Virus record (IMG/VR): IMGVR_UViG_2822571654_000002
Direction: 5' to 3' (one strand)
Length of the DNA: 64,000 nucleotides
Origin: a virus
A program made the position numbers and the translations under genes. The notes under the pieces are model-generated. The model searched no databases. It saw only the letters and a list, made by a program, of their open reading frames with translations, and was not told the DNA's origin. Shown one piece after another: positions 28,084 to 64,000 of the stretch (positions within the stretch are counted from its first letter, which is position 1; each line of letters begins with the position of its first letter).

Positions 28084-28662
28084 TTACTTATATTCCTCCT
28101 CTTTTAATTCTTTCGCTTTAGCATAAATAGTAGAACGCGGAACTCCCGTCATTTTTGAAATATCATTTACACTTAATCCATTCTCTTTCCTATTAAAGAA
28201 TAAGTTCATAGCCTGCTTAACCTGTTTTTCATCCTGTCCTTTACGTCCCATATGTTTACCCATCGCTTTAGCTCTTTCTCTTCCTTCAGCTGTTCTTTCA
28301 TTAATTAAATCTCTTTCAAACTCAGCAATTGCCCCTAACATAGTAAACATCAATTTACCTGCTGGTGTAGAGAAATCAATTTGTTCTTTAAGAAATACCA
28401 CCGCTATTCCTCTATCCGCTAATTGATTTACAATCTTATGCAAATCAAATATTGATCTAGCTAAACGATCTATTTTACAAACAACAAATTTATCTCCTTC
28501 TCTCATATACTCTAATGCCTTTTGCAATTCTTCCCGATCACTATTAGCTCCACTGTACTTTTCAGAATATATTTTGTCACATCCATATTCTGTTAATCTT
28601 TCAATTTGCGCATCTAAATTTTGATCTTTTGTACTTACCCTTGCATAACCAACAATAGCCAT
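28084..28662 (-). CDS. Small serine recombinase (resolvase/invertase)
   Basis: VGYARVST catalytic motif, KIDRLARS, C-terminal HTH. Confidence 0.92.
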   Translation of the reverse strand: MAIVGYARVSTKDQNLDAQIERLTEYGCDKIYSEKYSGANSDREELQKALEYMREGDKFVVCKIDRLARSIFDLHKIVNQLADRGIAVVFLKEQIDFSTPAGKLMFTMLGAIAEFERDLINERTAEGRERAKAMGKHMGRKGQDEKQVKQAMNLFFNRKENGLSVNDISKMTGVPRSTIYAKAKELKEEEYK

Positions 28663-28954
28663 CCAAATCACCTCAAAATAGTCTAAAAGTCTAAAGAATT
28701 ATATACTTATATTTTAGACTATCTTCTAGACATTAACAACTATCTGTTTACAAAGTTTTTACCCTATAAATTTTAAATGTACAAAAGGGTCAACTTTTAG
28801 ACAGTTAAGCAGGACAGTTATTTTCTTTCGTTGTGTTCGTTTGTTTTGTAAAACAGGACAAATCTATCAATTCAGTTAAATCTATAAATCTAACTATCAC
28901 ATTTTATAGTTTTATTCATATACTGTATTAGATTGCTAGAAAGGAGGCGTAAGC

Positions 28955-32393: not shown

Positions 32394-33023
32394 TTAAGCC
32401 TTTAATAATTTACGTGTCTTGTTGGCCATCTTCTCTTTTGCTGCTTCAATGTTATTTGCTACTTTCTTATGGTCCTGATCAAATTGAATCATGCCATCAA
32501 ACATAACTGGAGCTACTGCTTCATCAATGTATTGCAAGTAATCCACTGGCGCTCGCTCTGTCTGTTCTACTAAATACCCATAAATATCAAAATCTGCTCT
32601 TGGTATAGACTTCTTGCCCTTCGGTTGATGAGACATCCTTACATAAGATTGAATGATTGATAGTGGTACTGCAAATACTGACTTATCCTTACTAAACTCT
32701 ATAAGGAAGAAGCATATTGCTCCCATCTTCTCTGCTTTCTCTAGATAATCCAATTGATGCTGCGCAATGTTCTTTAAATCAAAACGTGTGTCCTTCTCTG
32801 TAGATTTAGCTTCAAACGCAATAGCTCGTCCCTTATACACTCCGTCATAATCTACTGTACTTTTAGCTTCATAGAATCCGTTTAATACTCGTCCACCTGC
32901 GCTTTTTAACACCTTCACAGGAGTCGGACGCTTGTTTATAAGCGCCACTCCACCTCTTTGATACATTTCATTTGATAGATTGATAAGCATTTCAAATGCC
33001 ATTCCACGATTTCCTAAAGTCAT
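32394..33023 (-). CDS. recU: RecU Holliday junction resolvase
   Basis: GNRGMAFE, STVDYDGVYKG, AFEAKST, HQLDYL. Confidence 0.93.
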   Translation of the reverse strand: MTLGNRGMAFEMLINLSNEMYQRGGVALINKRPTPVKVLKSAGGRVLNGFYEAKSTVDYDGVYKGRAIAFEAKSTEKDTRFDLKNIAQHQLDYLEKAEKMGAICFFLIEFSKDKSVFAVPLSIIQSYVRMSHQPKGKKSIPRADFDIYGYLVEQTERAPVDYLQYIDEAVAPVMFDGMIQFDQDHKKVANNIEAAKEKMANKTRKLLKA

Positions 33024-39350: not shown

Positions 39351-39977
39351 TTAGTTTGTTTGTTCTATTTTTTCTACTTGTTCTTCGATTTCAGAAGTTT
39401 CTTTTTCAGCCTGTTTAACCCACTTTGTTGATTTCTTAAGTACTTCTTCAGCTTGTTTTAATGTCAATTCGCCAACTTCTTTAATACTTAAGTGTCCTTT
39501 AATCGTTTCTTCATCCACTTTTCGAAGAGTAGCTAATTTTTTTATGTTTAATTTGATTGCACCGACTTGTTGAGCAGTAATCATTTCCTCTTGTATCTCT
39601 GGTAAATCTTCACCTGCGTAGATATACAAGCCTAATCCGTGAAGTGCAATTGCTTTTACTAAGCAACGCTGAATACTCGTATTAATGTCAAAGCTGTTAG
39701 GCTCTACAATCGGCTTGTTCTGATTGTTAAGTATCGGATGAATCTGACTTAGTGGTATTCCTTGTACAGTTACTTCAACCTCTACGAAGTAACCACAATC
39801 TGTTTTGAGGTAAGGCGCTCCATCAAATCGCTTTACTTCCCATGTTGCTGTTGGATCTACCTCACGAAGTTTTTTAACTGCCCATGCCCATGATAAGTAG
39901 TTAAAGCGCCCTTTCTTTTCAACATGTTCCTTGCAATCTATTTGAGCTAATTTAGAAAAGTAATTTTCAGTTGTCAT
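39351..39977 (-). CDS. Sak/Rad52-like single-strand annealing protein (DUF1071)
   Basis: FNYLSWAWA and QRCLVKAIALHGLGLYIYAGEDL motifs. Confidence 0.9.
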   Translation of the reverse strand: MTTENYFSKLAQIDCKEHVEKKGRFNYLSWAWAVKKLREVDPTATWEVKRFDGAPYLKTDCGYFVEVEVTVQGIPLSQIHPILNNQNKPIVEPNSFDINTSIQRCLVKAIALHGLGLYIYAGEDLPEIQEEMITAQQVGAIKLNIKKLATLRKVDEETIKGHLSIKEVGELTLKQAEEVLKKSTKWVKQAEKETSEIEEQVEKIEQTN

Positions 39978-44860: not shown

Positions 44861-45147
44861 TTCGTTCCGTTTATTTTATTATTTTCATAATATCATATTT
44901 TTGCCAAAATTCAGTCGTGTGGTTATCAGAAAAATGTTGAGAAAGTTTGAAAATAGCTTTATATCAACGCTTACGGATAAGGATATGCAATAGTGCATCT
45001 TTCTTTATGAAGTACTCTTATGCATGTTTTACTGTATTAACCAAGAGAGCTGCAGCTCTCTTTTTTTATTTATGATATCCCACCTTGAGAATCTTTAAAT
45101 TACTTTAATATGATATAATAATTTGAATTACATATAGGAGGTATATT

Positions 45148-50489: not shown

Positions 50490-50679
50490 AGTTGCACATA
50501 AAAAGCCTCTTATTTGAGGCTTTTTTGTTTGTTAAGAAATATTAATACAAAAAGGTTTCCATTTAGAATTACCTCACATGCCTATTACCCCAAAAAATTC
50601 TCCACTTGAGGTGACATCCATAAAACGTGGATTTGAATCCTATTTCTCAATAACTGCTTTACATCAGTGATAAAATAAT

Positions 50680-50718
50680 ATGGTTCAAGTCGTAGAAAGG
50701 CACCTTAAGGTGTCTTTT
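50680..50718 (+). repeat. Cassette-boundary repeat copy 1
   Basis: ATGGTTCAAGTCGTAGAAAGGCACCTTAAGGTGTCTTTT. Confidence 0.9.
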
Positions 50719-50827
50719 CTTGACATATCCATAAAGATTACACAAATTAAATAAAATTCATGTTACATAAAGATAATGGTATCATGTATATCATTAAAAT
50801 CTTTGTTAATAATATACATGATACTTT

Positions 50828-51898
50828 TTAACGGATTGTAAAAAGTTCTTTCCATCCTACAGGGAAACCTAAATAATTTTGAACATCCAATATTGGATCT
50901 AATCTTTGAATTTCTTCTTCCAAAACCATTAAAAATGAATTCCATTGGCTTGCTATTTTTGTATTTTCAAATAAAAACAACTTATGAAATACATAAAAAC
51001 AAGCAATCAATTGATTTCGCAACTTAGGTTTACTTTTAATATTAGGGCAAAATGCCGGTAAATCAGCCCTGAAAATTTGCGGCGGTTTTGTAAAATTAGC
51101 CCCATATAGCCTTGAATGATGCGAAATCTTATTACGTAATAACCTAATTGACGCAATCCAGCCGCTAAATGCTTTATGATATGTAGGGTGATCATATATA
51201 GATTTTATATAACCTTGCAATTGCGATTTATTTATTTGAGTTAAAAACGTCTCAAATTCACCAAAAGTCAGTTCTTCTACTAATACCCAAAGTGGAATAT
51301 AATCACTTTTATATTTTCGATGATGCTGGATAGGTAAAGAATTTGATTCCTTTATTCTTGATTCTATTTTAAGAATGATTTTTTTTGCCCATTCCTCACT
51401 TTGATATAAATTTAAATCTAAATAACATTGAGCCATAAAGAATTTTTCATTCTCATAATTATTCCCTAAATAATTCACCAAGCTACCTTTCCACTTATTT
51501 TCAAAATAACTTGTAAATTCATAAAGATTCGATTTCAAAAATTCATCAAAGTAATATAAATTAAGAGCATCTGTAAAGGAATATTTCTTTGCATCTTGCC
51601 TTCTTGGTAATAACTTTGGATAAATGGAGAAACGGTAATAATTAATGTCCCTAAAAAAATTCTTTGCAGTTATTTGCTCAGAATCTGAAAACGTTAATTT
51701 TTTACCTAATTCCTTAATTAAACGATCCATACTTAAGAAATCTTTAACTGTTTCCCCATAAAGTTTTGCATTTTTCAAAATTGAATCAGATGTCTCATTA
51801 CTTTCCACCATACGGTTTCTACGCATAATATGAATTCGCCTACTATTTATCTTGCTCCGTCCATTTTTAGGTTTTCTACATGTACGATATCTAGCCAA
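50828..51898 (-). CDS. Abi family (AbiD/AbiF, Abi_2) HEPN protein
   Basis: INYYRFSIY, YYFDEFLK, IPLWVLVEELTFG, RNKISHH (RxxxxH); GAGGAGG SD before TTG at 51898. Confidence 0.9.
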   Translation of the reverse strand: MARYRTCRKPKNGRSKINSRRIHIMRRNRMVESNETSDSILKNAKLYGETVKDFLSMDRLIKELGKKLTFSDSEQITAKNFFRDINYYRFSIYPKLLPRRQDAKKYSFTDALNLYYFDEFLKSNLYEFTSYFENKWKGSLVNYLGNNYENEKFFMAQCYLDLNLYQSEEWAKKIILKIESRIKESNSLPIQHHRKYKSDYIPLWVLVEELTFGEFETFLTQINKSQLQGYIKSIYDHPTYHKAFSGWIASIRLLRNKISHHSRLYGANFTKPPQIFRADLPAFCPNIKSKPKLRNQLIACFYVFHKLFLFENTKIASQWNSFLMVLEEEIQRLDPILDVQNYLGFPVGWKELFTIR

Positions 51899-51942
51899 TT
51901 CTATCCTCCTCATCGCCTTTCTAAAATTTCAGAAAAAGCGCA

Positions 51943-52001
51943 TAAAAAAAAAGACTTGTCATAATGCGCAGTCATTTGACTTAAGCGTGACAAGTTCTGG
52001 T
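51943..52001 (-). ncRNA. abiF-type hairpin RNA (candidate antitoxin or attenuator)
   Basis: ACTTGTCA/TGACAAGT stem (51954-51995) followed by a U9 tract on the minus strand, between promoter and Abi gene. Confidence 0.65.
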
Positions 52002-52007
52002 AGACTT

Positions 52008-52036
52008 ATCTTAACCTAGTGTTTGTTTTTTGTCAA
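52008..52036 (-). promoter_or_regulatory. SigA promoter for abi RNA and gene
   Basis: TTGACA-N17-TAAGAT on the minus strand. Confidence 0.8.
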
Positions 52037-52210
52037 TTAATAATTTGACATTTATTTCTCATATGAAATAATCCGCGGGTTCAAAAAATCAAAGTAATAC
52101 TTACTGTAAGTAAGGTTAATAAATTGTATTAGTTTTGGAGATAAGAAAGAGGAAACGACCAGTTCCTCCTTGGTTCTATTTATTTTCCATTCATTGAAAA
52201 CTGCTATAAA

Positions 52211-52312
52211 ACACACATTAAATATCTCAGAAAACCTCTCGGTTTGACGTTAGAACAACTATCAGAAAAAAATCGATTATCTCATAGACTGATTAAAAAT
52301 AATAAAACCTGA
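52211..52312 (+). pseudogene. XRE HTH remnant
   Basis: HIKYLRKPLGLTLEQLSEK with no start codon and an early stop. Confidence 0.55.
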
Positions 52313-52346
52313 TAAAAACAGGGTAACTTAACTACAAACAATGGTT

Positions 52347-53348
52347 CTATTCCCACCACTTATTACCCTTCCAAGGATTCGAAATATCGTGAATGATTAA
52401 CAAGACATGATCGACAAAAAACATTACATGCTTATATTCCTCATCTGTACAGTATTCCATTAATCCTCTTTTTATATTGAGATACCTCTCTCTAGTCGAT
52501 GGGTGTTCTTCATCCCCTTGATGTGGGAATTTATCACGAAGTGCTAATGCGATCATCGTGTATAATGGTCCTCCCATATAATTATACGGGAGGTATGTAT
52601 TTTGATTATTGTTCAACATTAAATCCAATGCAAATTCATCGGCCAAATATTCCTCCTCATGGTATATATTACCACCCCTGATATTATGACCTCCAAAAGG
52701 AAACATATCCTCGCCACTATGCACAGTATGCTTTAGAAAGTGGTGCCCAATCTCATGGGCTATCACAAATGTTAACATACCTTCAATTATATTTCCGTAA
52801 TTGTCAAGTTCTTGTGTTAATAAATGTAGTGGGAGTTTTCCATTATAAATAAGTGCCTCTTCACTCTTTTCAGGTAACGCCGCAACTTTTAAATCTAATA
52901 ATTCTCCCAAAATCTTCCGATCACTTTCATCCTCTGTTGTGGCTGTAGAAACAATAGTAGCGGTTAATCCCGCAATGATTGATAACACATATCCAATTTC
53001 AAAGTTAAGTGTAATAAGATATCCTTTATACTCTGGATCAATTATACGAGCTATTGCATTTGGTAATGGATCTGTATCATTCATTTTTACTCCTATAAAC
53101 ACCTTTTGTAGTTCAATTTTTAATTTTTCGTCTGCTTGTTCTACCAATCTCTCCATTATAATTTGGATAACAGCATGATTTGAATACCATAAATCCATTT
53201 CTTTTAGCTTTTCAAATAATTCTTCAACATCAGGTATATCCACTAAATCTGGAAACATCTGAGCAAGTTCTTCTGCATAATCACCCATTAAATTTCCACT
53301 AATTTTTTTATTTTCATCAAAAAATTGATCTTTTGTGTATTTATCCAT
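52347..53348 (-). CDS. HExxH zinc metalloprotease (Lit/U49- or M48/IrrE-like)
   Basis: FVIAHEIGHHFLKH...EEYLADEFA...HPSTRERY; no signal peptide. Confidence 0.75.
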   Translation of the reverse strand: MDKYTKDQFFDENKKISGNLMGDYAEELAQMFPDLVDIPDVEELFEKLKEMDLWYSNHAVIQIIMERLVEQADEKLKIELQKVFIGVKMNDTDPLPNAIARIIDPEYKGYLITLNFEIGYVLSIIAGLTATIVSTATTEDESDRKILGELLDLKVAALPEKSEEALIYNGKLPLHLLTQELDNYGNIIEGMLTFVIAHEIGHHFLKHTVHSGEDMFPFGGHNIRGGNIYHEEEYLADEFALDLMLNNNQNTYLPYNYMGGPLYTMIALALRDKFPHQGDEEHPSTRERYLNIKRGLMEYCTDEEYKHVMFFVDHVLLIIHDISNPWKGNKWWE

Positions 53349-54013
53349 CTTATTCTCCTCAGGTCAGTTTCTTTTATTTTGTATTTATTAATGATTCAAT
53401 ACCAAAATTATACACTCAATATCTGAGAAATAATATATAGTTATATTACTACACTAGAGTACAAATCAAATCTAATTTTTTTTTACATAATTTTACAAAA
53501 AACATATTGACATCACTTTTGGCGTTCCTGCTGATGCGTATAGCTTTAAAGGTTCTTGGCGGTATGGGATTACTTTTAAAGTGAAAGATACAGAAATCAT
53601 CATCAATTTAGAGTGGGGAGTTATTGCTCTATCTACCTTAGGAATATCTGTTACCTGAGTATAGTTCCTTTAAAAACAATTCTGGCTGACTTTGTATTAA
53701 CTCTGTATTTCCCTTTTCAAATTGCTCCATAACAAATAAATAAAAACATAAATTATTATTTATTTTTGAAATTTTACTATATAAGTTATTTATAAACGGG
53801 ATTCTTATTGTCACAAAAATCACCTCTTCCCTCTCTTATTCGTAGAATACAACTTTTTTCAGAAATCCAACCTTATTTTTTTAATGAGAGGTCCCATACA
53901 TATTATTAAAATAAACAATATCTGTTATAAGGTGATATAATTAATTATTGATATATAAGAATTTAAAAAGGGGATTAAAAGGCATGTATTAGCCTATATA
54001 GGAGGGGATTCAG

Positions 54014-55075
54014 TTGAAGAAAATATTTATTAGTCATTCAACTAAAGACGGAGATTTAGCAATAAAACTTATGGATATGCTACAAAGTCAGTTTAATTTA
54101 ACAAGAGATAATTTCTTTCTCACCTCAGACGAACAGTTAACGATAGGAGGAAATTGGATCGAAGAAATTCGAGAAGCAATGTACAATGCAAGTATTGTAC
54201 TTCCTATAATTACACCAAACTTTTTAGAAAGTAAATTCTGTATATGTGAGTTAGGAGCAGCTTGGGTTAATCAACACGCGTTAGTACCCGTAATTATTCC
54301 ACCTTTAGATTATAATGCATTGGCAGATACACCTTATCGTTCATGGGTACAATCAATTATATTAAAGAGCGAAGATGATTTAGGAAGAATTGCACAAGCA
54401 ATGTCTGATAGAGATCTAGGGAAAGTTAGTATACCTCGTTTTATTACACGAGCAAGAACGTTCTATAACGAAACGGTAATTCCCTTTACTTCTACGATGA
54501 AACAAAAAGAGGTTATAACACCCGAGCTAGTAAAAACATTAAGGGAACAGCTGAATTCATATAAGGGAGCATATAACGAAGTTGAAAAAGAATTAGAACA
54601 AATTAAAGAAGAAAATAAAGCGCTTAGACGTATGAAAAATGCTGAACAAGTTAGGGAACTAGATTTTGCAAAAATGGGGGAATGGGACACATTCATGAAT
54701 GCAGTTGATAACCTGAAAGAAAAATTAAGAAGGTTGCCTAGTCTTGTACCAAGTATCTTGTATAACAATTTTAAAAAATCAAGAGGGAATGGATTGGGTT
54801 TCGTTGGAGCGATGGAGGACAATGCTTCATTAGAGAAGCTACAAAATGAGGGTTACATCGTACTTGATGATGAAGGATGGGAACCTAATTTTGAACATTC
54901 ATTTATAAATAATGCTAGTGAAGCTTTATACGAATTAGAACAAGTTATGAAAGCTAATAAAGATATAATTGAAGAAAAGTTTGAACATGAATACGGTGAT
55001 ATCCTTATGGGGCTTAAATATTCACCATTTTGGGAAGAGGTTCTTGGAGAATCCATAACACATTCGGAGCGTTAA
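54014..55075 (+). CDS. TIR domain plus coiled-coil protein
   Basis: IFISHSTKD...SKFCICELGAAW (catalytic Glu position intact); central coiled coil. Confidence 0.88.
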   Translation: MKKIFISHSTKDGDLAIKLMDMLQSQFNLTRDNFFLTSDEQLTIGGNWIEEIREAMYNASIVLPIITPNFLESKFCICELGAAWVNQHALVPVIIPPLDYNALADTPYRSWVQSIILKSEDDLGRIAQAMSDRDLGKVSIPRFITRARTFYNETVIPFTSTMKQKEVITPELVKTLREQLNSYKGAYNEVEKELEQIKEENKALRRMKNAEQVRELDFAKMGEWDTFMNAVDNLKEKLRRLPSLVPSILYNNFKKSRGNGLGFVGAMEDNASLEKLQNEGYIVLDDEGWEPNFEHSFINNASEALYELEQVMKANKDIIEEKFEHEYGDILMGLKYSPFWEEVLGESITHSER

Positions 55076-55448
55076 TGTAGTCAATTGTTGCTTTTAAATA
55101 ACGACAGGGTGTTTATAAAAAAAGTTGTGATGTTTTGCTCCTTTGGGTCTCTTAATCTAAAGAAGTGTTTTTACAGTAAAATTACATTTCCTGGAACACC
55201 GATAATATTGATATTAGTAGGCTCCATCCTAACGTATAGCCACTATTATTGATTACATAGCTAAATGTATAATTCCCTATAATTAAAACTCACGTTGGTC
55301 CATTCACAGTTACAGAAGTATTAATCGTTGCCGTGCTCCTTCTTGATTTAGTGAGTTATATGAATTTTCTTATTGATTTACTTCTTAAAATACGACATGA
55401 TAATAAATGAAATTAATAAATTAAATCAATTGGGAGATGGTATTAGTT

Positions 55449-55847
55449 ATGGTTAAATATGGATATGGCGGTTCTGAAGAAGCTTTGTATCTACAAGCTT
55501 ATGATTTAGCTGAGTCAGGTCATCCTACATTATTATTTAGTTTTGAATCGGCTACGATTAAGTTAGTGAACATACTTATGTCACACAAACTGAAGATCAA
55601 AATAGACGATCTTGATCTAACTGATAATGCTTTAGCTGCCAAGTTTAAACAACTTACAGAAGCGTTACCAGCTCCATTCAGATTTGTAGATACAGTAAAC
55701 TTGTCGCTACAGGAAATCAGCGACATAATTTCAAAAAACAAAGCATCCCATAAAATTACTCATGTTGTCTTTGATCGTGTGAATCCGCAAGACAGCAATG
55801 CAATAAATCAACTTGGTTTGAAGCTTAATGTAATTATTAAATACTAA
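55449..55847 (+). CDS. Degenerate RecA/DnaB-C-like domain protein
   Basis: TLLFSFES...HVVFD strands resemble the DnaB C-terminal fold; no P-loop. Confidence 0.5.
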   Translation: MVKYGYGGSEEALYLQAYDLAESGHPTLLFSFESATIKLVNILMSHKLKIKIDDLDLTDNALAAKFKQLTEALPAPFRFVDTVNLSLQEISDIISKNKASHKITHVVFDRVNPQDSNAINQLGLKLNVIIKY

Positions 55848-55920
55848 TTAATAGCGATGATCCAGACAGACGATTGAAAGCTCCGATTGCAGTACTAGAA
55901 TTAAACAACAAATAAAGACA

Positions 55921-55958
55921 GTTCCAATTAGAGAAAGACACCTTAGGGTGTCTTTTTT
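55921..55958 (+). repeat. Cassette-boundary repeat copy 2 (degenerate)
   Basis: GTTCCAATTAGAGAAAGACACCTTAGGGTGTCTTTTTT, ungapped alignment to consensus. Confidence 0.75.
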
Positions 55959-56017
55959 TAGTGGACAAACCAATATAAATTGTATTATAAAAATAATAGG
56001 ATAAAAAAGAAAGGTAA

Positions 56018-56227
56018 GTGAACATCATAATTAATTTTGAACCATTTAACCCAACTATAAATGACATAGCGATCAAACTTGCTATGGTATTGTTTATACC
56101 GTTATTCTTAGCATTGATTATCAAAGTGATACTTATGAAATTTATGAAAGAATCGATTGCTGGCAGACTAGCATATCTATCTTGTTTGTTTTTTATGTAC
56201 TATGTATTTAAATTTGTTACAGAGTAG
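56018..56227 (+). CDS. Small two-TM membrane protein
   Basis: AAGG SD, GTG start, two hydrophobic helices. Confidence 0.65.
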   Translation: MNIIINFEPFNPTINDIAIKLAMVLFIPLFLALIIKVILMKFMKESIAGRLAYLSCLFFMYYVFKFVTE

Positions 56228-56312
56228 CAATGCACCATATAGTGTCTTTTCTTTATCAAACATACGTTTTATCATTTCAAATAAATAGATTTATATTAGA
56301 AAGGAATATATT

Positions 56313-56546
56313 ATGGATTTTCAAGTAAATATACCAAGCCCCTTCCAAGCAATTCCTGAGAGTGCAGTGATTATCTTTTTGATTTTGATCTTGTTAGGTG
56401 CAGCACTATTAATTTTCTCAAATTGGATACAAGGTGTAATTCCTTATCGGACTAGACAATATATTAAAATTGGTTTTATGATACTGACACTTGTATTTAT
56501 CATACTAGCAATTAAAAAACCTGAATATATTACAGCTTTATTTTAA
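56313..56546 (+). CDS. Small two-TM membrane protein
   Basis: AAGGA SD; hydrophobic helices. Confidence 0.65.
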   Translation: MDFQVNIPSPFQAIPESAVIIFLILILLGAALLIFSNWIQGVIPYRTRQYIKIGFMILTLVFIILAIKKPEYITALF

Positions 56547-56772
56547 AAGTAGTTATGAGGATATTCTTTCCTTAATTAAATTAAGGCTTTAAGGTTATAT
56601 AAAAAGAGTAGCAAAATTAAAATACTACTCTTTAAAAATCCATATAATAGGGGTGTCATTGATGAAAGGGAATAATTTAAATTAGACTAATATGTTTCAA
56701 TAATCGTTCCATATGTTAATAAAGTTTCTTTCATCCTTAGTCTAGATAGCCTCTCGAAATATTAAGTCACAT

Positions 56773-57930
56773 TTACTTAATAACTTCATTAAGCCATTCG
56801 GATTTGATTTGGTCACCTTGAACCAACCGTAACTCTTTAAACAAAAAAACTAAATCTGCCCCTGAAAATAGCTTTACAGGATATCCATCCTGATATACTT
56901 CCTTCTGAGCCTGTTTTGTATAATATGAAGTTGTAACAAAGATACCATATTGTCCACGAGATAAACGTGCCACTAAGCGTGATAAATGCCTTGGCCCAAC
57001 TCCACTTTTCCTGCCAAACTTTTTTGCTTCTCCCAGAAAACTTATATCATAGGACAAGGGATATGGTAAGCTAAAATGTCCTATAAAATCGAATCCCCCA
57101 TCTTTAGTCGGCCTTGTTTGCGTAATAGAGTGAGTTACATCTTTTAACTGTCGAAATAAAGCTACCGTTACTGCTTCAAATTGTATTGGAGATAGCGAAA
57201 CTAACTGTTCCAATATTTTAGCATCTGGACTTCCTTCTTTGGGTAATTGACTATCTAGAGTTCTTATTTTATTTTTCCATACATGTAATTTGTTTATTTT
57301 ACCATTTTTGTATTCTCTCCATGAAGAAGGTGCATCCTTATCTATAAAGTTGATCTCCTCAAAATCATTTGCTCTTGCTCGATTATGTAACCAAGTAATA
57401 TCTACTTCTTCAACATCAAGTATTGATAGGTGACATCTATAATTTTTTATTGGTAAACCACTTTTATTATCTACAAACCAAGTAAGTTCAAGTTTATCTA
57501 ATATACAAAGTCCATTAAACCTAACAATTCCCTTCCTTGTTTTTGAAAAATGTAGTATTGGGGGGACATGCTTAAAATTACCATCTAATATTAAATGATT
57601 GATAACTTCAAGCGTTTGATTTCCTTCAAAGTCATCATATCTCTTTTCATAATTGAATTTTGCATCACCCCAATATAAAATTTCTCCCTCAGATAAATCT
57701 ACAATATCATGCCAGGGATTACTTTCCCCCGAGTTTGTATCACTTGTCACCAATATTAGATATGCAGGTGCATCACTAAATCGTGATACATATTTTAAAG
57801 GGCGAATCCCTGGCGAATTTCTCATACCACTGTTCTTTATGTTTATCCAACGTGAAAACTGGTCTTCTTCATTACTGCTTGAAGCTTTATCTATATATTC
57901 ATGTCCTAACCTATATAAGTTTCCCAACAT
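56773..57930 (-). CDS. AspBHI/MspJI-like modification-dependent restriction endonuclease (SRA-like plus Mrr_cat)
   Basis: N-terminal GIR...NPWHD...ILYWGDAK...PILHF SRA-like domain; C-terminal FEAVT...DGGFDFIG...GEAK...GIFVTTSYYT Mrr catalytic domain. Confidence 0.85.
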   Translation of the reverse strand: MLGNLYRLGHEYIDKASSSNEEDQFSRWINIKNSGMRNSPGIRPLKYVSRFSDAPAYLILVTSDTNSGESNPWHDIVDLSEGEILYWGDAKFNYEKRYDDFEGNQTLEVINHLILDGNFKHVPPILHFSKTRKGIVRFNGLCILDKLELTWFVDNKSGLPIKNYRCHLSILDVEEVDITWLHNRARANDFEEINFIDKDAPSSWREYKNGKINKLHVWKNKIRTLDSQLPKEGSPDAKILEQLVSLSPIQFEAVTVALFRQLKDVTHSITQTRPTKDGGFDFIGHFSLPYPLSYDISFLGEAKKFGRKSGVGPRHLSRLVARLSRGQYGIFVTTSYYTKQAQKEVYQDGYPVKLFSGADLVFLFKELRLVQGDQIKSEWLNEVIK

Positions 57931-58329
57931 AATTGCCCCCATTGACGAGTTATTCTTTTTATAAGACTATCTTTATTAAAAAAACAAGATTAAAAACTCC
58001 TTATATTTTAACAGGAAAATCACACCATAATAATATTGTTTTTTTCAAATATAAAAAGTAAAGCATCTTTTAAATACTAACCTCATAAAAACTGTATACC
58101 GCGTACCTACAATCCCCCACCGCAGCGATACGAATTTAAGAACCGATTTCTTCCCCCAAAACGATAAGAATGAACTTCGGTGTTATTAAAGCACCAAAGT
58201 TCCGTTTAGGTGTACTTTAAAATTTTAGCTTGATAGGTATTTCTATACCCCACTAACAATCCAAACCAGATAGATATAATAATTACTTGATTTTCGCAAG
58301 GTTATATAATTAATTTAAATTTAAATAAA

Positions 58330-58383
58330 AAAACAAAACCCTATAAATCTACAATAAACGTTGATTTAATAGGGTTTTGTTTT
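58330..58383. repeat. 15-bp inverted repeat
   Basis: AAAACAAAACCCTAT (58330-58344) / ATAGGGTTTTGTTTT (58369-58383). Confidence 0.8.
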
Positions 58384-58580
58384 AAAAATAAAATCACCAA
58401 AAAAAATTACCCATTGCATTTAATATACCTACATTGTATACTGAATTCATCAAGTTGACACACAAAAAAACTTGTTTTTCACAATATACTTTCATCACAA
58501 AGTCTATAACATCAACATCTTTATACACTGCCATGTATGCGAGTTGGTGTTGCACACAAATATTAGGAGGTAACATTAAA

Positions 58581-59105
58581 ATGCAATTATATCAAAATGA
58601 AGAAATAAGAAGCAAGAAAATAGGACTTGTGCTACAACCATTAGGTCAACAAGGCAATGAAGAACTTACAATACTTAAAGCAGTTCATTTAGACGATATA
58701 GCCGTGGCTTTAACAGATGTACAATATACATATTTAGAAAAAATGTTCCCAAATAAGGAATTTCTAATTTGGGGAGTACACGATCGCGGAATTACAGCTA
58801 GTCGGTATAATCTAATTGAAAATTATTTTCACGTTCTTTTTTATAAGCAACGTAATTATTTTTTACGTGCAAAAATAGCCTGTAAGTTCCATAATCCAAA
58901 AGTAGCAAGCACTCTCTGGGAAAAAGATCAGGATGAAAAAGGTCGCAATTTTAACAACTTATATTTTTGCCCTGTTGAATCATTAGAGAATATCAACCTA
59001 TCTGTATTTGAAGTGAATGAAGTATTAGAATCAAAGCAAGATAGATTATATGGTATGAAAGTTTGTGTTGATGAAGAAGCAACGGCTTTATTGAAATTAC
59101 TATAA
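58581..59105 (+). CDS. Stand-alone PUA/EVE-like domain, paralogue of the middle domain of the next gene
   Basis: GGAGG SD; LVLQP, FP..IWGV, VLFY, K.H.PK...LW, F..LYF and NLSV motifs shared with 59182..60453. Confidence 0.7.
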   Translation: MQLYQNEEIRSKKIGLVLQPLGQQGNEELTILKAVHLDDIAVALTDVQYTYLEKMFPNKEFLIWGVHDRGITASRYNLIENYFHVLFYKQRNYFLRAKIACKFHNPKVASTLWEKDQDEKGRNFNNLYFCPVESLENINLSVFEVNEVLESKQDRLYGMKVCVDEEATALLKLL

Positions 59106-59181
59106 ATATACAAAATCGTGACCAAGGACTTAATTCTCTGGTCACGATTTTATACTAGAAGTACTAAAAGGAGCAACTAAA

Positions 59182-60453
59182 ATGACAGAAATAATGACAG
59201 GCTTACGTTATTTAATGAATGTCAAAGGGCAAAAAAACAAAGATATTGCGAAGATTCTTGACATCTCTACCCAAGCAGTTTCACTATGGACAAAAAAAGG
59301 CACTATTCCCAAGAAACATTTAGAAAGACTCGCAAATCACTATAAAGTATCCCAAGAATATTTAGTAAATCCACTTACTGCTGATACAATTAGTGTCATT
59401 GAAAAAGATGCAACGCCAATGATGCAAATTGGCCATAATGGACTTAACATGTATGGAGATTTTAATGTTGTGCTGCAGCCAACTAGTGATAAAATAGCGC
59501 GTACAAATTATGAGAATACAGTTCGTAAACTGCGAAATATTGAGGGATTTTCTGAGTATGTGAAAATAAACGAGCTAACTGATTTACATACGATCTTTCC
59601 AGAAGGACAATGCGCCGTTTGGGGTGTAAAGTCGGGTACCAATGACACAACAAAAAAGCAATACGATAAACTAACTCTCGGTGATTTCGTACTATTTTAT
59701 CAAGATAAACATTTTTATAACCGTGCAATTGTAGCATATAAAATACATTCACCTAAACTAAGTGAATATTTATGGGGAACCTCTATTTTTGAGCACATAT
59801 ACTTTCTACAGGATGTTCAACCATATAACTTATCCGTTATACGATTTAATGAAATTGTATATGGAAAATTAGAAGATTTCCCAGTAATGGCATTCCGCGT
59901 TTTAAACCGTGAACAAAGTTTACAGATTATTGATGCATTTGATATTGAAGCTGATTATTCTCCAACTACATTAACTGACAGAAAACAATCTCGTGAAGAT
60001 ATTTTGAAAGCACTGTTAAATTTAGAAAATAATAAAGAACTTGACCGTGATACAAAACGAAAATATCGCATTGAACAAAGTTTATTACGTGAATTTTTAT
60101 TTAATGGAAAAGAAGAAGTTACATGTGCCTGCTGCCAAACAAAACTTTCACCAGAATTTTTTGCAACAGCTCATATTAAAAAACGCTCGCACTGTTCAAC
60201 AGAAGAAAAACTAGATGTTAACGTTGTAATGCCTCTTTGCTACTTAGGATGCGACATGTTATTTGAAAAAGGTCTACTTGTCGTCAATTCACATGGCCAT
60301 TTCCAACGTACTGATGTAATAAATAAAAAGATTCCCTATGAGGGACGTTTAGGCACATTGCTTGCAAAGTATGACCAAAAACCTTGTTCTTATTGGAACA
60401 AAGAAACAGCCCAATATTATCAGTGGCATTACAAACACCATATAATGAAATAA
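59182..60453 (+). CDS. XRE-HTH plus PUA/EVE-like domain plus HNH nuclease
   Basis: N-terminal KNKDIAKILDISTQAVSLW HTH; C-terminal CACC...AHIKKRSHC...LCYLGCDMLFEKG HNH. Confidence 0.82.
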   Translation: MTEIMTGLRYLMNVKGQKNKDIAKILDISTQAVSLWTKKGTIPKKHLERLANHYKVSQEYLVNPLTADTISVIEKDATPMMQIGHNGLNMYGDFNVVLQPTSDKIARTNYENTVRKLRNIEGFSEYVKINELTDLHTIFPEGQCAVWGVKSGTNDTTKKQYDKLTLGDFVLFYQDKHFYNRAIVAYKIHSPKLSEYLWGTSIFEHIYFLQDVQPYNLSVIRFNEIVYGKLEDFPVMAFRVLNREQSLQIIDAFDIEADYSPTTLTDRKQSREDILKALLNLENNKELDRDTKRKYRIEQSLLREFLFNGKEEVTCACCQTKLSPEFFATAHIKKRSHCSTEEKLDVNVVMPLCYLGCDMLFEKGLLVVNSHGHFQRTDVINKKIPYEGRLGTLLAKYDQKPCSYWNKETAQYYQWHYKHHIMK

Positions 60454-60589
60454 AAAAGCTACAATAAGTCTTTGTATAACAATGAAGCCAAATCATGCAA
60501 TAAGCATTAGCGGACATTAAAAATAATAAAAAACAGAATAATTGAAGCGATAAAATAATATTTGGATTGACATCCGATACCATATTATG

Positions 60590-60630
60590 ATGGTTCAAGT
60601 CGCAGGAAGGCACCTTAGGGTGTCCTTTTT
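60590..60630 (+). repeat. Cassette-boundary repeat copy 3
   Basis: ATGGTTCAAGTCGCAGGAAGGCACCTTAGGGTGTCCTTTTT. Confidence 0.9.
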
Positions 60631-60714
60631 TCTTTATTCCTAAATCTATATTTTAACGTGCAATTCCCTTATTCTTATATAAAGGATAAATTAAAATAAG
60701 GAGGATATTTATAC

Positions 60715-61062
60715 ATGCAAAAAGGTGCTCTTATAATTACATCTTTATTATTTATAATTAGCTTATTTATAATTGGAAAAGGGATAATAGATCGTTATTT
60801 TATTACAGGTGATCCAAAATTAAGAGAAGAAGCCATTATAGGGATTATGTGGCACTTAGAAGAACAAGGGTATGCAAAGTCAGATGTTTTAGAAATTAAA
60901 CCTTTTTTTGATAGTAAACAAACTCAATATGGAGCTCATGTTATATTTAAAGATGAACCAAACATATGGTACAAATACGTACGTTGGGATAATCCTCATA
61001 CTGGCAAAATTGAATTTGGGCAAGATCATGAGGAACAAGGAAAACACGACGAACTAAAATGA
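60715..61062 (+). CDS. DUF3139-like membrane-anchored protein
   Basis: N-terminal TM; HLEEQGY...VIFKDEPNIWYKY. Confidence 0.75.
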   Translation: MQKGALIITSLLFIISLFIIGKGIIDRYFITGDPKLREEAIIGIMWHLEEQGYAKSDVLEIKPFFDSKQTQYGAHVIFKDEPNIWYKYVRWDNPHTGKIEFGQDHEEQGKHDELK

Positions 61063-61071
61063 TTAATATTT

Positions 61072-61108
61072 AATCCAGTCGGAGGAAGACATCTTAGGAT
61101 GGCTTTTT
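61072..61108 (+). repeat. Cassette-boundary repeat copy 4 (degenerate)
   Basis: AATCCAGTCGGAGGAAGACATCTTAGGATGGCTTTTT. Confidence 0.75.
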
Positions 61109-61173
61109 TAAAATAAAAAATGCCCTACATTTTACGTAGGGCACTTTTATATTTTATATGATAGAGTTATATT

Positions 61174-63135
61174 TTAACCCCACCACATTCCACCTTTACC
61201 AAAGGAGTGAATCCGTAATCCAATTACCCCTGGCATTGGGCGTAAGAAATCATACGGATGTATAATATAAAAATTACTTACTGGGAAGAAATCTACTCCT
61301 GCTCCATCTCTGAAAGATAAGTAAACTAATTTAGAACAATATGTTTTATAATCGTTACTCTTTGCAGAAGTTCCGAAAATATCATATCGATATTTAGACC
61401 CATTCTGATAAAAATGATTATAGGCGTAATCAGCAGCTCTAAATGCAGCTCCCTTATCCTTTTTATACCTTAAATATACAAAGTTAGAGTATTCCTGATT
61501 TCCCTTATGGATAAACTCCCATTTTGATAAAGGCATTATTTTGATTGCAGGCGATGCTGATGTTCCTGGTGCATGTACTAATAGATATTCTCCTTTATTA
61601 GCACCAGAGAACCCTTGTGTTTCAGTGAAGTCTTTACCAATAATACCAGAATGTCCTGTAACACCATAGTTAGAGTCTGGTGTAATAACAATGTCACCTT
61701 TTTGCACCCAATCATCTGGTATGTTCCAAGATGAAGTTACTGTTCCAGCACGTGCTACGCCTTGTTTTGGATTCTTTTGTTTTTCTGCTTCTTTTCTTAA
61801 AAACTCAGCTTTTTCTTCTTCTGTAGGTATTCTTACAGCTTCGTATGTATCATCAAGCCCTTGTGCTTTTAAGGCAGCTCTTGCTTCTGCAACTCTTTGC
61901 TGAGGTGTTTTATCTGGTCCAATATCATTTTCGTTGTAACCTAATGCCTGACGTAGTGGTTCCCTTTTTTCATTGAACTCTTTTTCAGCATTAAGAGACA
62001 TCCATTTCTGTCCCAAATACGTACCGACTAGATAAAAATCTCCCTGCTCTGTCTTTTTTCCATCATAAGCAACTAAATTTTTTTGAGGACCAAACTCAGA
62101 ACTTTTCTTAGCTTCTAAATACGGCTCATCAAAAGTAGTGAAATTAGCATTCACTTGCATTTTGATTCCATCAGGAGCAATCCACGTAGGACCTTCGTAT
62201 GTAACTACTTTCCACCAACCATCAGGACGTTTTTCTAATATTGGTAAGAATTTTTGAGGACCAAATTGATTTCCACCTGCTCCTTTAGTTGCTATAAGGG
62301 ACGGTTCATTATAGCTATAGAAGCTTTTATCAAGTACTACTGTCTCTGCAACACCTGGATACATCCATTTGTCGCCTTCCCAAGTTTGAACTTTAAACCA
62401 TCCTTTAGTATTTCCGTCAACCACTCTAATAGTAGTAGGGCTATAAGGTACTTCCATATTTCCTTTTTGAGATGCAAATGCAGGCTCATAAAACACTAAA
62501 AATGGTTTATCAAATGCTTTTAACTCCCCATCTAGGTTGACCCACTTATCACCCTCATAAGTTGCTACTTTCCACCAACCATTTGTACGTTTTTCTTTTA
62601 CAACAAGTGATTTTTGTGGCCCATATTGGTTTCCGCCACTTGCTTTTTCAGATGTAAATGAAGGTTCATTATACGCATAGAAATTTTTATCTACTTTTAC
62701 CGCTTCAGAATTAAGGAAAATCCATTTATCTCCTTCATTGGTTTGAATCTTTAACCATCCATCTTCTTGTCCATCTATCGCCGTAACTACTTGAGGTGCT
62801 ATAACATTACCATTGTTCCCTTTTGGTGATGTGAATTTAGGTTCAGCAAAAGTAATATAGGGTTTCTCTATTTTCTTTTTTTCCCCATCGGTATTAATCC
62901 ACTTATCGCCTTCCCAAGTTCCTATCTTCCACCAACCATCTGAACGCTTCTCTTTTACAGTTAGAGCTTTTTGAGGTCCATATTGAGCTCCACCATTTCC
63001 CTTTGCAGATGTAAACGATGGCTCGTTATATGCAAAGAACGATTTGTTAAATGGTATAACTTCATCAGCAAATGAAATATTGTTCGCTGAAAAAATTACA
63101 AATACAAATAATAAAAATGAAAACAATTTCTTCAA
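61174..63135 (-). CDS. Secreted protein with six SH3b/GW-like repeats and a C-terminal permuted NlpC/P60 (YiiX-like) domain
   Basis: Signal peptide; EP.F...KG...GW.K..T.EGDKW repeats; His before Cys (GHSGII ... YCSKLVY). Confidence 0.82.
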   Translation of the reverse strand: MKKLFSFLLFVFVIFSANNISFADEVIPFNKSFFAYNEPSFTSAKGNGGAQYGPQKALTVKEKRSDGWWKIGTWEGDKWINTDGEKKKIEKPYITFAEPKFTSPKGNNGNVIAPQVVTAIDGQEDGWLKIQTNEGDKWIFLNSEAVKVDKNFYAYNEPSFTSEKASGGNQYGPQKSLVVKEKRTNGWWKVATYEGDKWVNLDGELKAFDKPFLVFYEPAFASQKGNMEVPYSPTTIRVVDGNTKGWFKVQTWEGDKWMYPGVAETVVLDKSFYSYNEPSLIATKGAGGNQFGPQKFLPILEKRPDGWWKVVTYEGPTWIAPDGIKMQVNANFTTFDEPYLEAKKSSEFGPQKNLVAYDGKKTEQGDFYLVGTYLGQKWMSLNAEKEFNEKREPLRQALGYNENDIGPDKTPQQRVAEARAALKAQGLDDTYEAVRIPTEEEKAEFLRKEAEKQKNPKQGVARAGTVTSSWNIPDDWVQKGDIVITPDSNYGVTGHSGIIGKDFTETQGFSGANKGEYLLVHAPGTSASPAIKIMPLSKWEFIHKGNQEYSNFVYLRYKKDKGAAFRAADYAYNHFYQNGSKYRYDIFGTSAKSNDYKTYCSKLVYLSFRDGAGVDFFPVSNFYIIHPYDFLRPMPGVIGLRIHSFGKGGMWWG

Positions 63136-63280
63136 GCTAAATCTTCCTCCTTTGGAAATATATTAAATAAAATAGAAATTCATGTTATATAATGTCATAT
63201 TTTCATATAAATTTCTATATATTTCTATAAAATTAAAAGATGTTATTATAATTTGAAAAATGATATTATTTAAGATTAAG

Positions 63281-63321
63281 ATGATTCAGGTCGGAGGAGG
63301 GCACCTTAGAGTGTCTTTTTT
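63281..63321 (+). repeat. Cassette-boundary repeat copy 5
   Basis: ATGATTCAGGTCGGAGGAGGGCACCTTAGAGTGTCTTTTTT. Confidence 0.9.
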
Positions 63322-63433
63322 ATTTTCAAAAGGACCTGCTCATTTAATCCATAAAAACATAAAGTAATTTGAATCCATTAAAATACATGAGTGACTCCTT
63401 ATTTTTCTCCTACTATTTAAAGGAGGAATTATT

Positions 63434-63535
63434 ATGGGCTTTGGTGGTAGCTGCGGTGGCTTTGCAGGAGGATTTGCTTTATTAGTTGTATTGTTTATAT
63501 TATTAATCATTGTTGGAGCTTCTTGCTTCTGCTAA
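63434..63535 (+). CDS. yjcZ: YjcZ-family small sporulation protein
   Basis: AGGAGG SD; MGFGGSCGGFAGGFALLVVLFILLIIVGASCFC. Confidence 0.92.
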   Translation: MGFGGSCGGFAGGFALLVVLFILLIIVGASCFC

Positions 63536-63974
63536 AAAACTATCGGAAAAGGCACTCTTATATGGGTGTCTTTTCTTTATTTCTCAATATAAGAACTTTA
63601 AGGATATGCTATTATTTAAATACAAATTCCCTTTTGTGCACTGAGATAGTAATATCCAATAAAAAAGCCCACCTATTTCCGTAGGTGGGCCTTGTCTTTA
63701 TTACACAATATCAAAGTATACTCTCTTTTTCTCATAAACTTTATGTAATTATACATATTTGCGAAAATTACACTAAATAAATATTACATGTAGTAAAATA
63801 TAAACCGTGGACACGTTCTATAAAGCAGATTCTTTTGAAAGACGTAACATATTGATCTCAAATCTCTTGTATTTTGTGAACTAACAATCTGATGTATATA
63901 GACGATTCTGTTTTATAGGATGGGTTTATACGTATAACAAAGGGATAATACGGATAAGTTTATACTAAATGAAC

Positions 63975-64000
63975 ATGGTTCAAGTCGGAGGAAGGCACCT
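63975..64000 (+). repeat. Cassette-boundary repeat copy 6 (cut by window end)
   Basis: ATGGTTCAAGTCGGAGGAAGGCACCT. Confidence 0.9.

Follow-up and report, generated by a model that had tools for sequence, protein, structure and literature searches.

To our knowledge, the mechanisms by which phages, phage-plasmids and defence islands gain and lose accessory and defence genes have been documented for few systems. Lambdoid phages are said to carry morons, together with conserved boundary sequences at their mosaic joints, as Juhala et al. 2000 and Clark et al. 2001 reportedly described. In T4-type phages, a motif known as PeSL (promoter-early stem-loop) combines a strong sigma-70-type promoter with a terminator stem-loop, and ORFans are shuffled there, which is attributed to homologous recombination between motifs (PMC2839356, PMC4122927). 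The authors who described the pneumococcal repeat SPRITE suggest its co-option as a terminator, and genomes of the Bacillus cereus group harbour the repeats bcr1-bcr18 (Okstad 2004; Tourasse 2006; Kristoffersen 2011), taken here from the summaries in PMC6542083, PMC6199540 and PMC3184786. Here, we analyse a repeated non-coding module in the IMG/VR virus record IMGVR_UViG_2822571654_000002, a stretch of 64,000 nucleotides (nt) that is referred to as the window and whose positions serve as coordinates throughout. The window is a B. cereus-group phage-plasmid, that is, a temperate siphovirus living as a plasmid. A first-pass annotation of its sequence had proposed that a ~40-bp direct repeat partitions defence and surface genes into cassettes in the manner of an integron. 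The partition is borne out, and the integron-like architecture is most probably produced by a terminator/small-RNA module that serves as portable homology.

Six module copies and two hairpin-only relatives, all on the + strand between 50.6 and 64.0 kb, were recovered by a fuzzy search, by a repeat finder (families D1, D3 and D4) and by a profile hidden Markov model (HMM) built from 133 related copies, and the three approaches agree (Table 1). The first-pass annotation had already counted them so, and its start positions hold for most copies, two being 3 nt off (55918 rather than 55921, and 61069 rather than 61072). At up to 3 mismatches, its consensus occurs at two places in the window and at none in shuffled sequence; the copies at 55918 and 61069 have 8-9 mismatches in 39. 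Positions 1-50000 contain no significant match to the profile HMM, and no - strand match is better than E 0.027, those recovered being the palindromic hairpins of + strand copies. The ~40-bp repeat is therefore present as described, but the real unit is about three times longer and the repeat is its 3' core only.

Alignment of 133 distinct copies defines the anatomy of the unit. The full module is ~125-130 bp long, non-coding and intergenic, and the 40-base repeat is its conserved 3' tail. It begins with a TTTCTCAAT box; next come a weak -35 (ATGAMY) and, separated from it by a 17-bp spacer, an extended -10 TGGTAAAAT. A 6-bp 5' hairpin with a variable tetraloop and an AU-rich linker lead to the core, in which GGTTCAAGTCGGAGGAAGG is invariant and TGGTTCAAGTCGGAGGAAGG and GGUUCAAGUCGGAGGAAGG are near-invariant. 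The 3' end consists of a 9-10 bp hairpin (GGCACC-TTAG-GGTGTC, with a 4-nt loop) and a T-run of ~12 nt ending in TTTAT. Conservation peaks at the TAAAAT of the -10, in the linker, in the core and in the hairpin, confirming the earlier observation of a terminator-like 3' half with ~20 conserved nt upstream. A putative sigma-A-type promoter and a terminator stem-loop are combined in this single short conserved motif. Hairpin and T-run fold at ~-12 kcal/mol and represent, by sequence, a standard intrinsic terminator; an identical hairpin sequence is found in 159 of 309 cases. Within the stems, 96.7% of alignment cells are paired, and the 9-10 bp stem is the only long-range pairing. The stems contain 3-4 G-U pairs, which become C-A mismatches on the opposite strand, so that good folding is expected only for RNA of the module strand.

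The module is anchored at its 3' side. All 342 HMM matches in the fetched loci end at model positions 125-140, whereas their starts are spread over positions 1-110; 122 are full length and none covers the 5' part alone, which led us to reject a split unit, or empty cassette, whose genes would lie between its promoter part and its core. Two thirds of the copies lack the promoter, their cores still being at high identity. The copies in the window are mostly such 5'-truncated forms. The nearly complete copy 3 comprises a -10-like ATAAAAT (60550-60556), the 5' hairpin TTGGAT-TGAC-ATCCGA (60562-60577), the core (60592-60610), the terminator hairpin (60609-60624) and then the T-run. In copy 1, the TTTCTCAAT box (50643-50651) and the extended -10 TGATAAAAT (~50668-50676) are fused straight to core and terminator, the 5' hairpin and AU-rich linker having been deleted and promoter and core retained.

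Full-length units are preceded at ~10-20 nt by a stop codon. The upstream open reading frame (ORF) is co-oriented with the unit in 41/57 and 54/67 cases (72-81%), the downstream one in 22/44 (full-length copies) and 42/71 (50-59%). Since its direction tracks the upstream and not the downstream gene, the unit is a 3'-end element rather than a leader, and a leader or attenuator of the downstream gene was rejected for this 50:50 orientation. Furthermore, 33 of the 96 distinct full-length copies lie directly 3' of another terminator, which is the layout of a stand-alone promoter-RNA-terminator mini-gene.

Several other identities were considered for the module and discarded. No Rfam 15 family matched the window at gathering score, and within 16.5 kb containing ~10 copies no notable match overlapping a unit was seen at E<=1; an Rfam family or riboswitch was dropped accordingly. 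A tRNA or tmRNA remnant acting as an attachment site was suggested by the T-loop-like GGTTCAAGTC, but its flanks cannot form a T-arm, ARAGORN detected neither tRNA nor tmRNA, and no integrase accompanies it. Coding potential is limited to tiny ORFs that are not kept across the loop variants of the alignment. A sporulation-sigma promoter was excluded by a frequent A-to-G change that destroys the CAT-type -10 and spares TGnTAAAAT. Double-sided covariation of the stem was not seen among sequences that are too alike and were retrieved with a pattern that itself included one arm, a result that counts neither for nor against a conserved fold.

The role of the module at cassette boundaries was assessed on six related arrays, chosen by overall similarity and not by the repeat. 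Among 200 ends of homology blocks, 116 fall inside a unit (+-20 nt), while units make up 5.6% of the sequence; this is ~10 times the chance expectation, and cassette boundaries thus coincide with the module. The units sit in a hyperplastic accessory region, and the end points of replacements and indels are enriched at the motif, as is the case for PeSL. In the plasmid NZ_CP126518.1, the stretch shared with the window (55931-60644) runs exactly from unit to unit and both flanking cassettes differ; in another contig, similarity to the window is confined to cassettes on the right-hand side of the 60590 copy. In metagenome contigs, 60612/60625 is joined to 63316/63319, which takes the 60590 copy straight to the sequence behind the 63281 copy and skips two cassettes, and no joints leading backwards on the window were present among the assembled contigs. 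Small cassettes recur in other orders in phage-plasmids and in a 375-kb conjugative plasmid, among them LCI, DUF4352, DUF4236, YjcZ, DUF5065, DUF3139, excalibur and sortase D. Of 23 loci with at least four matches, 21 have all of them on one strand, despite - strand genes inside the arrays. The partition of the accessory region into cassettes, as first proposed, hence rests on a roughly tenfold enrichment of breakpoints at units between related elements.

This enrichment bears on another account of the repeats, namely that they are ordinary terminators which look alike by descent of recently duplicated cassettes and have no role in recombination. Hairpin and T-run are indeed those of a textbook intrinsic terminator, and the B. 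cereus group is young, so that paralogues could still look alike. However, neither the tenfold enrichment nor a core that is uncoupled from both flanks agrees with such an account, the same unit stands 3' of dozens of unrelated genes, and some copies occur where nothing needs terminating. The match at 50672 follows another terminator, that of the upstream gene (50500-50525, ~120 nt before copy 1), and copy 5 occupies the gap between the start of the - strand gene for a 653-amino-acid (aa) protein and yjcZ, a divergent gap which, as the first-pass annotation had remarked, offers nothing to terminate. Already disfavoured, ordinary termination combined with common descent is hardly credible as the whole explanation.

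Variation within the module points to exchange between copies. Four polymorphic sites along the unit display all four combinations in every pairing. For pairs with a common upstream cassette, the flank is 2.2% divergent, but the values increase to 10% in the 5' part of the unit and 6.3% in the core, the corresponding values for random pairs being 19% in the 5' part and 6.5% in the core. Core differences amount to 0.14 nt between orthologous copies, to 3.1-3.4 nt when one flank is common and to 3.7 nt between random copies. Taken together, the shuffling of sites, the pattern of divergence and the unlinking of the core are the signature of frequent homologous exchange or conversion in a shared pool. 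Units diverge by 12.0% within arrays and by 11.1% between arrays (permutation p 0.78); being no more alike within an array than between arrays, they speak against local amplification or concerted evolution, which was rejected. The exchange pattern is not that of a single fixed crossover point, nor that of local amplification.

A fixed point of joining is what a capture site would require. According to this alternative, an undescribed capture process that needs no integrase operates at the module. The terminator-like hairpin at the end of a small-RNA gene would have new genes attached exactly at its 3' foot or T-run (TTTAT), and the defence and surface arrays of B. cereus-group phage-plasmids, megaplasmids and chromosomal hot spots would be built in this way. 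The joining might be directed by the hairpin or the transcript end, or be performed by a dedicated enzyme or a host enzyme in trans; the site would then be an integrase-free or trans-served analogue of attC, or a target of TTTAT-directed insertion as proposed for bcr1. The 3' junction is constant and sharp, 43 of 55 independent-looking junctions lying at +37 to +45, inside TCTTTTCTTTAT, and the core is unlinked even to the adjoining downstream cassette. Arrays are co-oriented in spite of their - strand genes (the 21/23 loci given above), the unit ends in the TTTAT motif tied to bcr mobility, head-to-head fused copies have a single common hairpin, and a serine resolvase occurs both in the window and in NZ_CP126518.1. 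On the other hand, no recombinase adjoins any array examined; in G002, a complete B. thuringiensis chromosome, the nearest match to a tyrosine or serine recombinase (PF00589 or PF00239) is ~450 kb from the unit clusters. All four combinations are found among sites 5' of the supposed crossover, the short and asymmetric stem with its G-U pairs fits an RNA better than a symmetric DNA site, and neither target duplications nor empty sites were found. Moreover, the T-run is of low complexity, so that the junction is not placeable to the nucleotide. We regard capture at the hairpin foot as unlikely. Of the earlier proposal of a recombination or capture site, the coincidence of breakpoints and the clustering and co-orientation of copies hold, but a dedicated site-specific system resembling that of integrons is not supported.

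The head-to-head fused copies, seen in loci L046 (~424-490) and L071 (1612-1661), consist of two convergent units with one common hairpin and form a perfect palindrome of ~20 bp per arm (TTCAAGTCGGAGGAAG...CTTCCTCCGACTTGAA). Shorter fused forms appear as paired +/- matches in L001 (9277-9324), L163 (13157-13199) and L164 (11270-11312). In addition, a GACA direct-repeat motif, CGACAWAATATGACAAWA, is located within ~15 nt 3' of several units (L003, ~20640-20600 and 24668-24630, - strand; L002, ~23500 and 21780) and could serve the following cassette as promoter or operator.

The first-pass annotation had offered a tiny repeated RNA gene as the other possibility, and the layout of complete copies, with a predicted promoter, ~80 nt and a terminator, fits it. 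In RNA libraries, the unit is present in many contexts, inside longer contigs, one of which has very high depth. Taken further, this leads to a rival in which the module is a family of trans-acting small-RNA genes (a regulator, a decoy or an antitoxin-type RNA), its border position and terminator role being by-products and its truncated copies decaying pseudogenes. The layout, the frequent position after another terminator, internally deleted copies that keep the promoter, and the strong conservation of the single-stranded linker and core would all suit such a family, as would the high-depth contig and the basal phages, which have exactly one complete copy near the lysogeny/plasmid-maintenance region. 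Against it, the two thirds of copies without a promoter have not lost the identity of their cores, at least 10 copies per replicon would be unusual for a regulator, a search allowing up to 5 mismatches in 19 detected no complementary target, either in the window or in NZ_CP126518.1, and the RNA libraries show contigs only, without RNA ends. As a complete explanation, a trans-acting RNA family appears improbable. The module is nevertheless a strong candidate for an unannotated multi-copy small RNA of mobile elements.

Copies of the module extend far beyond the window. The exact core was found only in B. cereus-group genomes (59 stretches, one of them labelled Paenibacillus) and in 92 viral contigs. 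A search of plasmids located the module at 1306 places in 508 Bacillus plasmids, a single plasmid having up to 13 such places by that search, and it is annotated in none of them. It is present in 62 of 71 species representatives of the genus, at 1 to at least 12 copies per genome. Fifteen records of sequenced phage-plasmids have a single full copy each, with the aimR side to one side of it and the rep/par genes to the other. The accessory arc of NZ_CP126518.1 contains all 13 of its matches and the phage core (26-80 kb) contains none, and plasmid pBCK802 of strain K8 contains 11 unit copies. The G002 chromosome has 11 copies, grouped at 549-556 kb and at 969-995 kb; in both clusters they are of mixed orientation and sit among ordinary accessory genes. 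Given this spread over plasmids, phages and chromosomes and this clustering, the copies are neither private to the array of the window nor scattered like ordinary terminators. The core sequence was not found in the papers searched, and the module, set apart from the bcr families indirectly by their descriptions, is real, widespread and apparently undescribed.

Two further observations concern its distribution. Unit copies at ~0.93-1.0 Mb recur in many B. cereus-group chromosomes (C1 of G002, ~947-1008 kb, and at least eight other complete chromosomes), an indication that the same pool of cassettes has a conserved hot spot in the chromosome; the neighbours in G002 are genes for MFS transporters, a sortase, hydrolases, DUF4352 and an S-layer-homology transglutaminase. 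The module was also encountered in one plasmid record labelled Klebsiella and in two contigs labelled Paenibacillus sp. 102 (L032 and L051), which are most likely mislabelled or contaminated B. cereus-group sequence.

A genus-specific repeat present at 1 to at least 12 copies per genome could also be a selfish element similar to a MITE or SPRITE, which inserts 3' of genes, is tolerated there and coincides with breakpoints because it marks permissive intergenic sites. Its copies cluster, often in variable regions, with complete and partial forms side by side, and share with pneumococcal SPRITE a terminator-like sequence near the 3' ends of coding sequences. However, terminal inverted repeats, target-site duplications and an associated transposase are all missing, and truncation proceeds from the 5' side only. 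Units that are no more alike within than between arrays indicate no local bursts, and identical cassette-plus-unit pairs in different replicons show that the unit travels with cassettes. A selfish repeat is accordingly very unlikely.

On balance, we lean towards the view that the module is a portable terminator/small-RNA mini-gene that doubles as short homology for cassette shuffling, giving an integron-like array without integrase or attC. The anatomy of the module, its distribution, its coincidence with breakpoints and the shuffling of variants inside it are directly shown; we infer that promoter and terminator are active, that an RNA is produced and by which pathway the copies recombine. 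At the end of each accessory cassette, the module would stop rightward transcription. Complete copies would additionally make a small RNA, in which a sigma-A-type promoter is predicted to drive a transcript of ~80 nt, with the 5' hairpin, the AU-rich linker and GGUUCAAGUCGGAGGAAGG, up to the intrinsic terminator. The same sequence of 45-125 bp is found beside many unrelated cassettes, whether in phage-plasmids, megaplasmids, prophages or variable regions of chromosomes, and would therefore act as portable homology. Homologous recombination at modules, by host RecA or by the phage annealing protein Sak with RecU, could then swap, add and delete cassettes, and a co-oriented, integron-like array would be the outcome. 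Rad52-type annealing proteins such as Sak reportedly recombine short, diverged homologies, as De Paepe et al. 2014 are said to have found, and Sak may be the catalyst of exchange at modules.

Several findings sit uneasily with portable homology as the sole principle. Similarity ends abruptly downstream, in the T-run, where most of the 55 junctions fall, and simple crossing-over along the unit does not predict a core unlinked to the downstream cassette; the sharp junction and this unlinking keep joining directed by the hairpin or T-run alive as a minority reading. The pairs compared were few and phylogenetically non-independent. Both the 20 nt before the hairpin and the sequence of the hairpin are conserved far beyond the needs of a terminator. 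Several cassettes already possess their own terminator beside the module (50500-50525 for copy 1; a bidirectional one at 61116-61148 after copy 4), and termination alone does not explain why the module is present. Finally, the RNA-library contigs show no 5' or 3' ends, so that the ~80-nt RNA and its termination are predictions.

The array lies in the accessory arc, which extends from aimR to the plasmid-maintenance genes, the DNA beyond the window being judged from related plasmids. Circular B. cereus-group plasmids of 69-88 kb are the nearest records; they share the backbone of the window and have a ParA gene. The first 45 kb of the window encode head, tail and lysis proteins, FtsK, a replication-relaxation protein, a Y-family polymerase, replication proteins, Sak, RecU, a resolvase and AimR (the arbitrium receptor). 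The earlier statement that no cognate recombinase is present in the window needs correction, since the serine resolvase, Sak and RecU are all there; none of them adjoins the array. Assignments of the cargo were broadly right, those of the peptidase and of the DnaB_C-like protein being weak (Table 1). Copy 2 lies directly 3' of the latter gene, and cargo block 2 is collinear and 96% identical in plasmids NZ_CP126518.1 and NZ_CP085401.1.

Table 1. Module copies, cargo genes and recombination genes of the window.
Feature	Position	Strand	Remarks
Module copy 1	50643..50724	+	HMM match 50672-50724, E 9e-14
Module copy 2	55918..55965	+	HMM match 55920-55965, E 2e-7; degenerate core, intact terminator hairpin
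Hairpin-only relative	56226..56259	+	HMM positions 103-136, E 0.02; 3' of 69-aa ORF
Module copy 3	60537..60637	+	Nearly complete; HMM E 4e-23
Module copy 4	61069..61110	+	HMM match 61074-61110, E 1e-6; degenerate core and hairpin, 3' of DUF3139
Module copy 5	63263..63329	+	HMM positions 72-137, E 4e-14
Hairpin-only relative	63543..63584	+	E 0.005; directly 3' of yjcZ
Module copy 6	63967..64000	+	Perfect core, E 3e-8; cut by window end
Cargo block 1	50828..55847	mixed	AbiD, M48/CapP-like peptidase, TIR, DnaB_C-like
AbiD	50828-51913	-	Cargo block 1
M48/CapP-like peptidase	52347-53348	-	Cargo block 1; weak match
TIR protein (SpbK/ThsB-like)	54014-55075	+	Cargo block 1
DnaB_C-like protein	55437-55847	+	Cargo block 1; weak match
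Cargo block 2	56018..60453	.	2 small ORFs, AspBHI_N+Mrr_cat, 223-aa ORF, HTH-containing 423-aa protein
AspBHI_N+Mrr_cat methyl-directed restriction enzyme	56773-57942	-	Cargo block 2
Cargo blocks 3 and 4	60715..63135	mixed	DUF3139 and 653-aa repetitive protein
DUF3139	60715-61062	+	Cargo block 3
653-aa internally repetitive protein	61174-63135	-	Cargo block 4; weak C92 match
yjcZ-type 33-codon gene	63434-63535	+	Cargo block 5; Shine-Dalgarno AAGGAGG
Sak single-strand annealing protein	39351..39977	-	The phage's own short-homology recombinase
RecU Holliday-junction resolvase	32394..33023	-	
Small serine recombinase (Resolvase+HTH)	28084..28671	-	Adjoins packaging genes; 22 kb from array

Some features of the window deserve separate mention. 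The gene of the 653-aa protein repeats internally every ~177/360 nt (repeat families D2, D5 and D6); relatives are annotated as DUF3238 in NZ_CP085401.1, and copy number differs among plasmids. The large terminase gene (23875-25614, - strand) looks split, the C-terminal Terminase_3 part alone being found in 23875-24720, next to a 219-aa ORF without family. Another TTTCTCAAT box (63580-63588) follows the hairpin-only relative downstream of yjcZ, and the segment 63580-63693 resembles a second mini-unit, in which this box is again spaced 27 nt from an extended -10 (TGCTATTAT, 63607-63615). About 45 nt after this -10 comes a hairpin (63667-63690) whose good T-run is on the - strand. The start of this mini-unit, TTTCTCAATATAAGAAC..., is also seen 3' of units at several other loci, and promoters of the TTTCTCAAT type may thus head more than one kind of cassette.

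The aimR promoter region (44880-44960, - strand) contains TTTCTCAAC ~45 nt upstream of an extended -10 TGATATTAT, and related phages have two or three TTTCTCAA/TTGAGAAA boxes upstream of aimR. It is possible, judging from these motifs, that a regulator site is common to the aimR region and the promoter box of the module. A phage operator TTTCTCAAY shared with the immunity region was considered and rejected: it is near aimR in several phages, but its spacing differs, and its five occurrences in the window, against 3.3 expected, are no enrichment.

The module gives a single recognisable sequence in more than 500 sequenced Bacillus plasmids and in most species of the B. cereus group, including food-borne and insecticidal strains, and more than half of the joints at which cassettes were swapped are marked by it. 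Applied to genomes of the B. cereus group, an HMM of the module would show where cassettes begin and end and point out variable cargo.

Among known repeats, bcr1-bcr18 share with the module the restriction to the B. cereus group and are, like it, within 100-400 bp, structured, probably transcribed and marked by TTTAT at one end; some bcr groups have been linked to rearrangement and gene acquisition. However, bcr1 is reported at 11 or more copies in every strain, whereas the module is absent from 9 of 71 species representatives, and bcr2, bcr3 and nine others are reported from chromosomes only, whereas the module is also on plasmids. In strain K8, the listed copy numbers of bcr4, 6, 10, 13, 16 and 18 are 2, 0, 2, 2, 2 and 0, against the 11 module copies on pBCK802 alone. 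The early suggestion that the repeat may be a known bcr is thus disfavoured by copy number and replicon distribution, compared by description and under the detection criteria of that paper.

Lambdoid morons resemble the cassettes in being autonomous promoter-gene-terminator units with short conserved intergenic sequences at their joints. Whereas the boundary sequences in lambdoid phages are short and heterogeneous, most joints here reuse one long, near-identical module.

The arrays resemble integrons in their co-oriented repeats, one at the 3' end of each cassette, in boundaries that coincide with the repeat, in a shared cassette pool of shuffled order with some reversed genes, and in the sharp downstream junction. 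The arrays are devoid of IntI, attI and Pc. Tyrosine recombinases (PF00589) were absent from those ORFs of the window that were scanned by Pfam, which were not all of them, and no annotated integrase stands beside the arrays of related plasmids. In contrast to attC, an imperfect palindrome of 57-141 bp (R''-L''/L'-R') with extrahelical bases and a conserved fold, the module conserves its sequence; its 5' extent is ragged, chromosomal copies are in mixed orientation, and the cassettes carry their own promoters and are sometimes multi-gene. Integron features other than the shape of the array are absent.

SPRITE, an AT-rich interspersed repeat of ~100 nt, is likewise confined to a narrow clade and located near coding 3' ends with a terminator-like 3' part. 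It differs by its 18-bp duplex, long U-rich tract and AAAA/TTTT terminal repeats, lacks a promoter and is not reported as a cassette junction. The module, in contrast, has a 9-10 bp stem, a T-run of ~12 nt and no terminal inverted repeats; its complete copies contain a putative promoter, and breakpoints coincide with it.

PeSL is likewise a short composite of promoter and terminator stem-loop that recurs tens of times in hyperplastic regions, where it separates non-essential genes, and end points of insertions, deletions and replacements between related phages lie in the motif. The PeSL promoter drives the downstream ORF, its stem-loop being within or before the promoter, whereas the terminator of the module comes ~80 nt after the promoter; placed between promoter and next gene, it would leave the promoter to make only a small RNA. 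Correspondingly, module orientation correlates with the upstream and not the downstream gene (22/44 downstream co-oriented). The module is also 3'-anchored with ragged 5' ends, has a much longer conserved sequence, and inhabits temperate Gram-positive phage-plasmids, megaplasmids and chromosomes. As far as analogy can guide, the closest analogue of the module is PeSL of T4-type phages, and the second is pneumococcal SPRITE.

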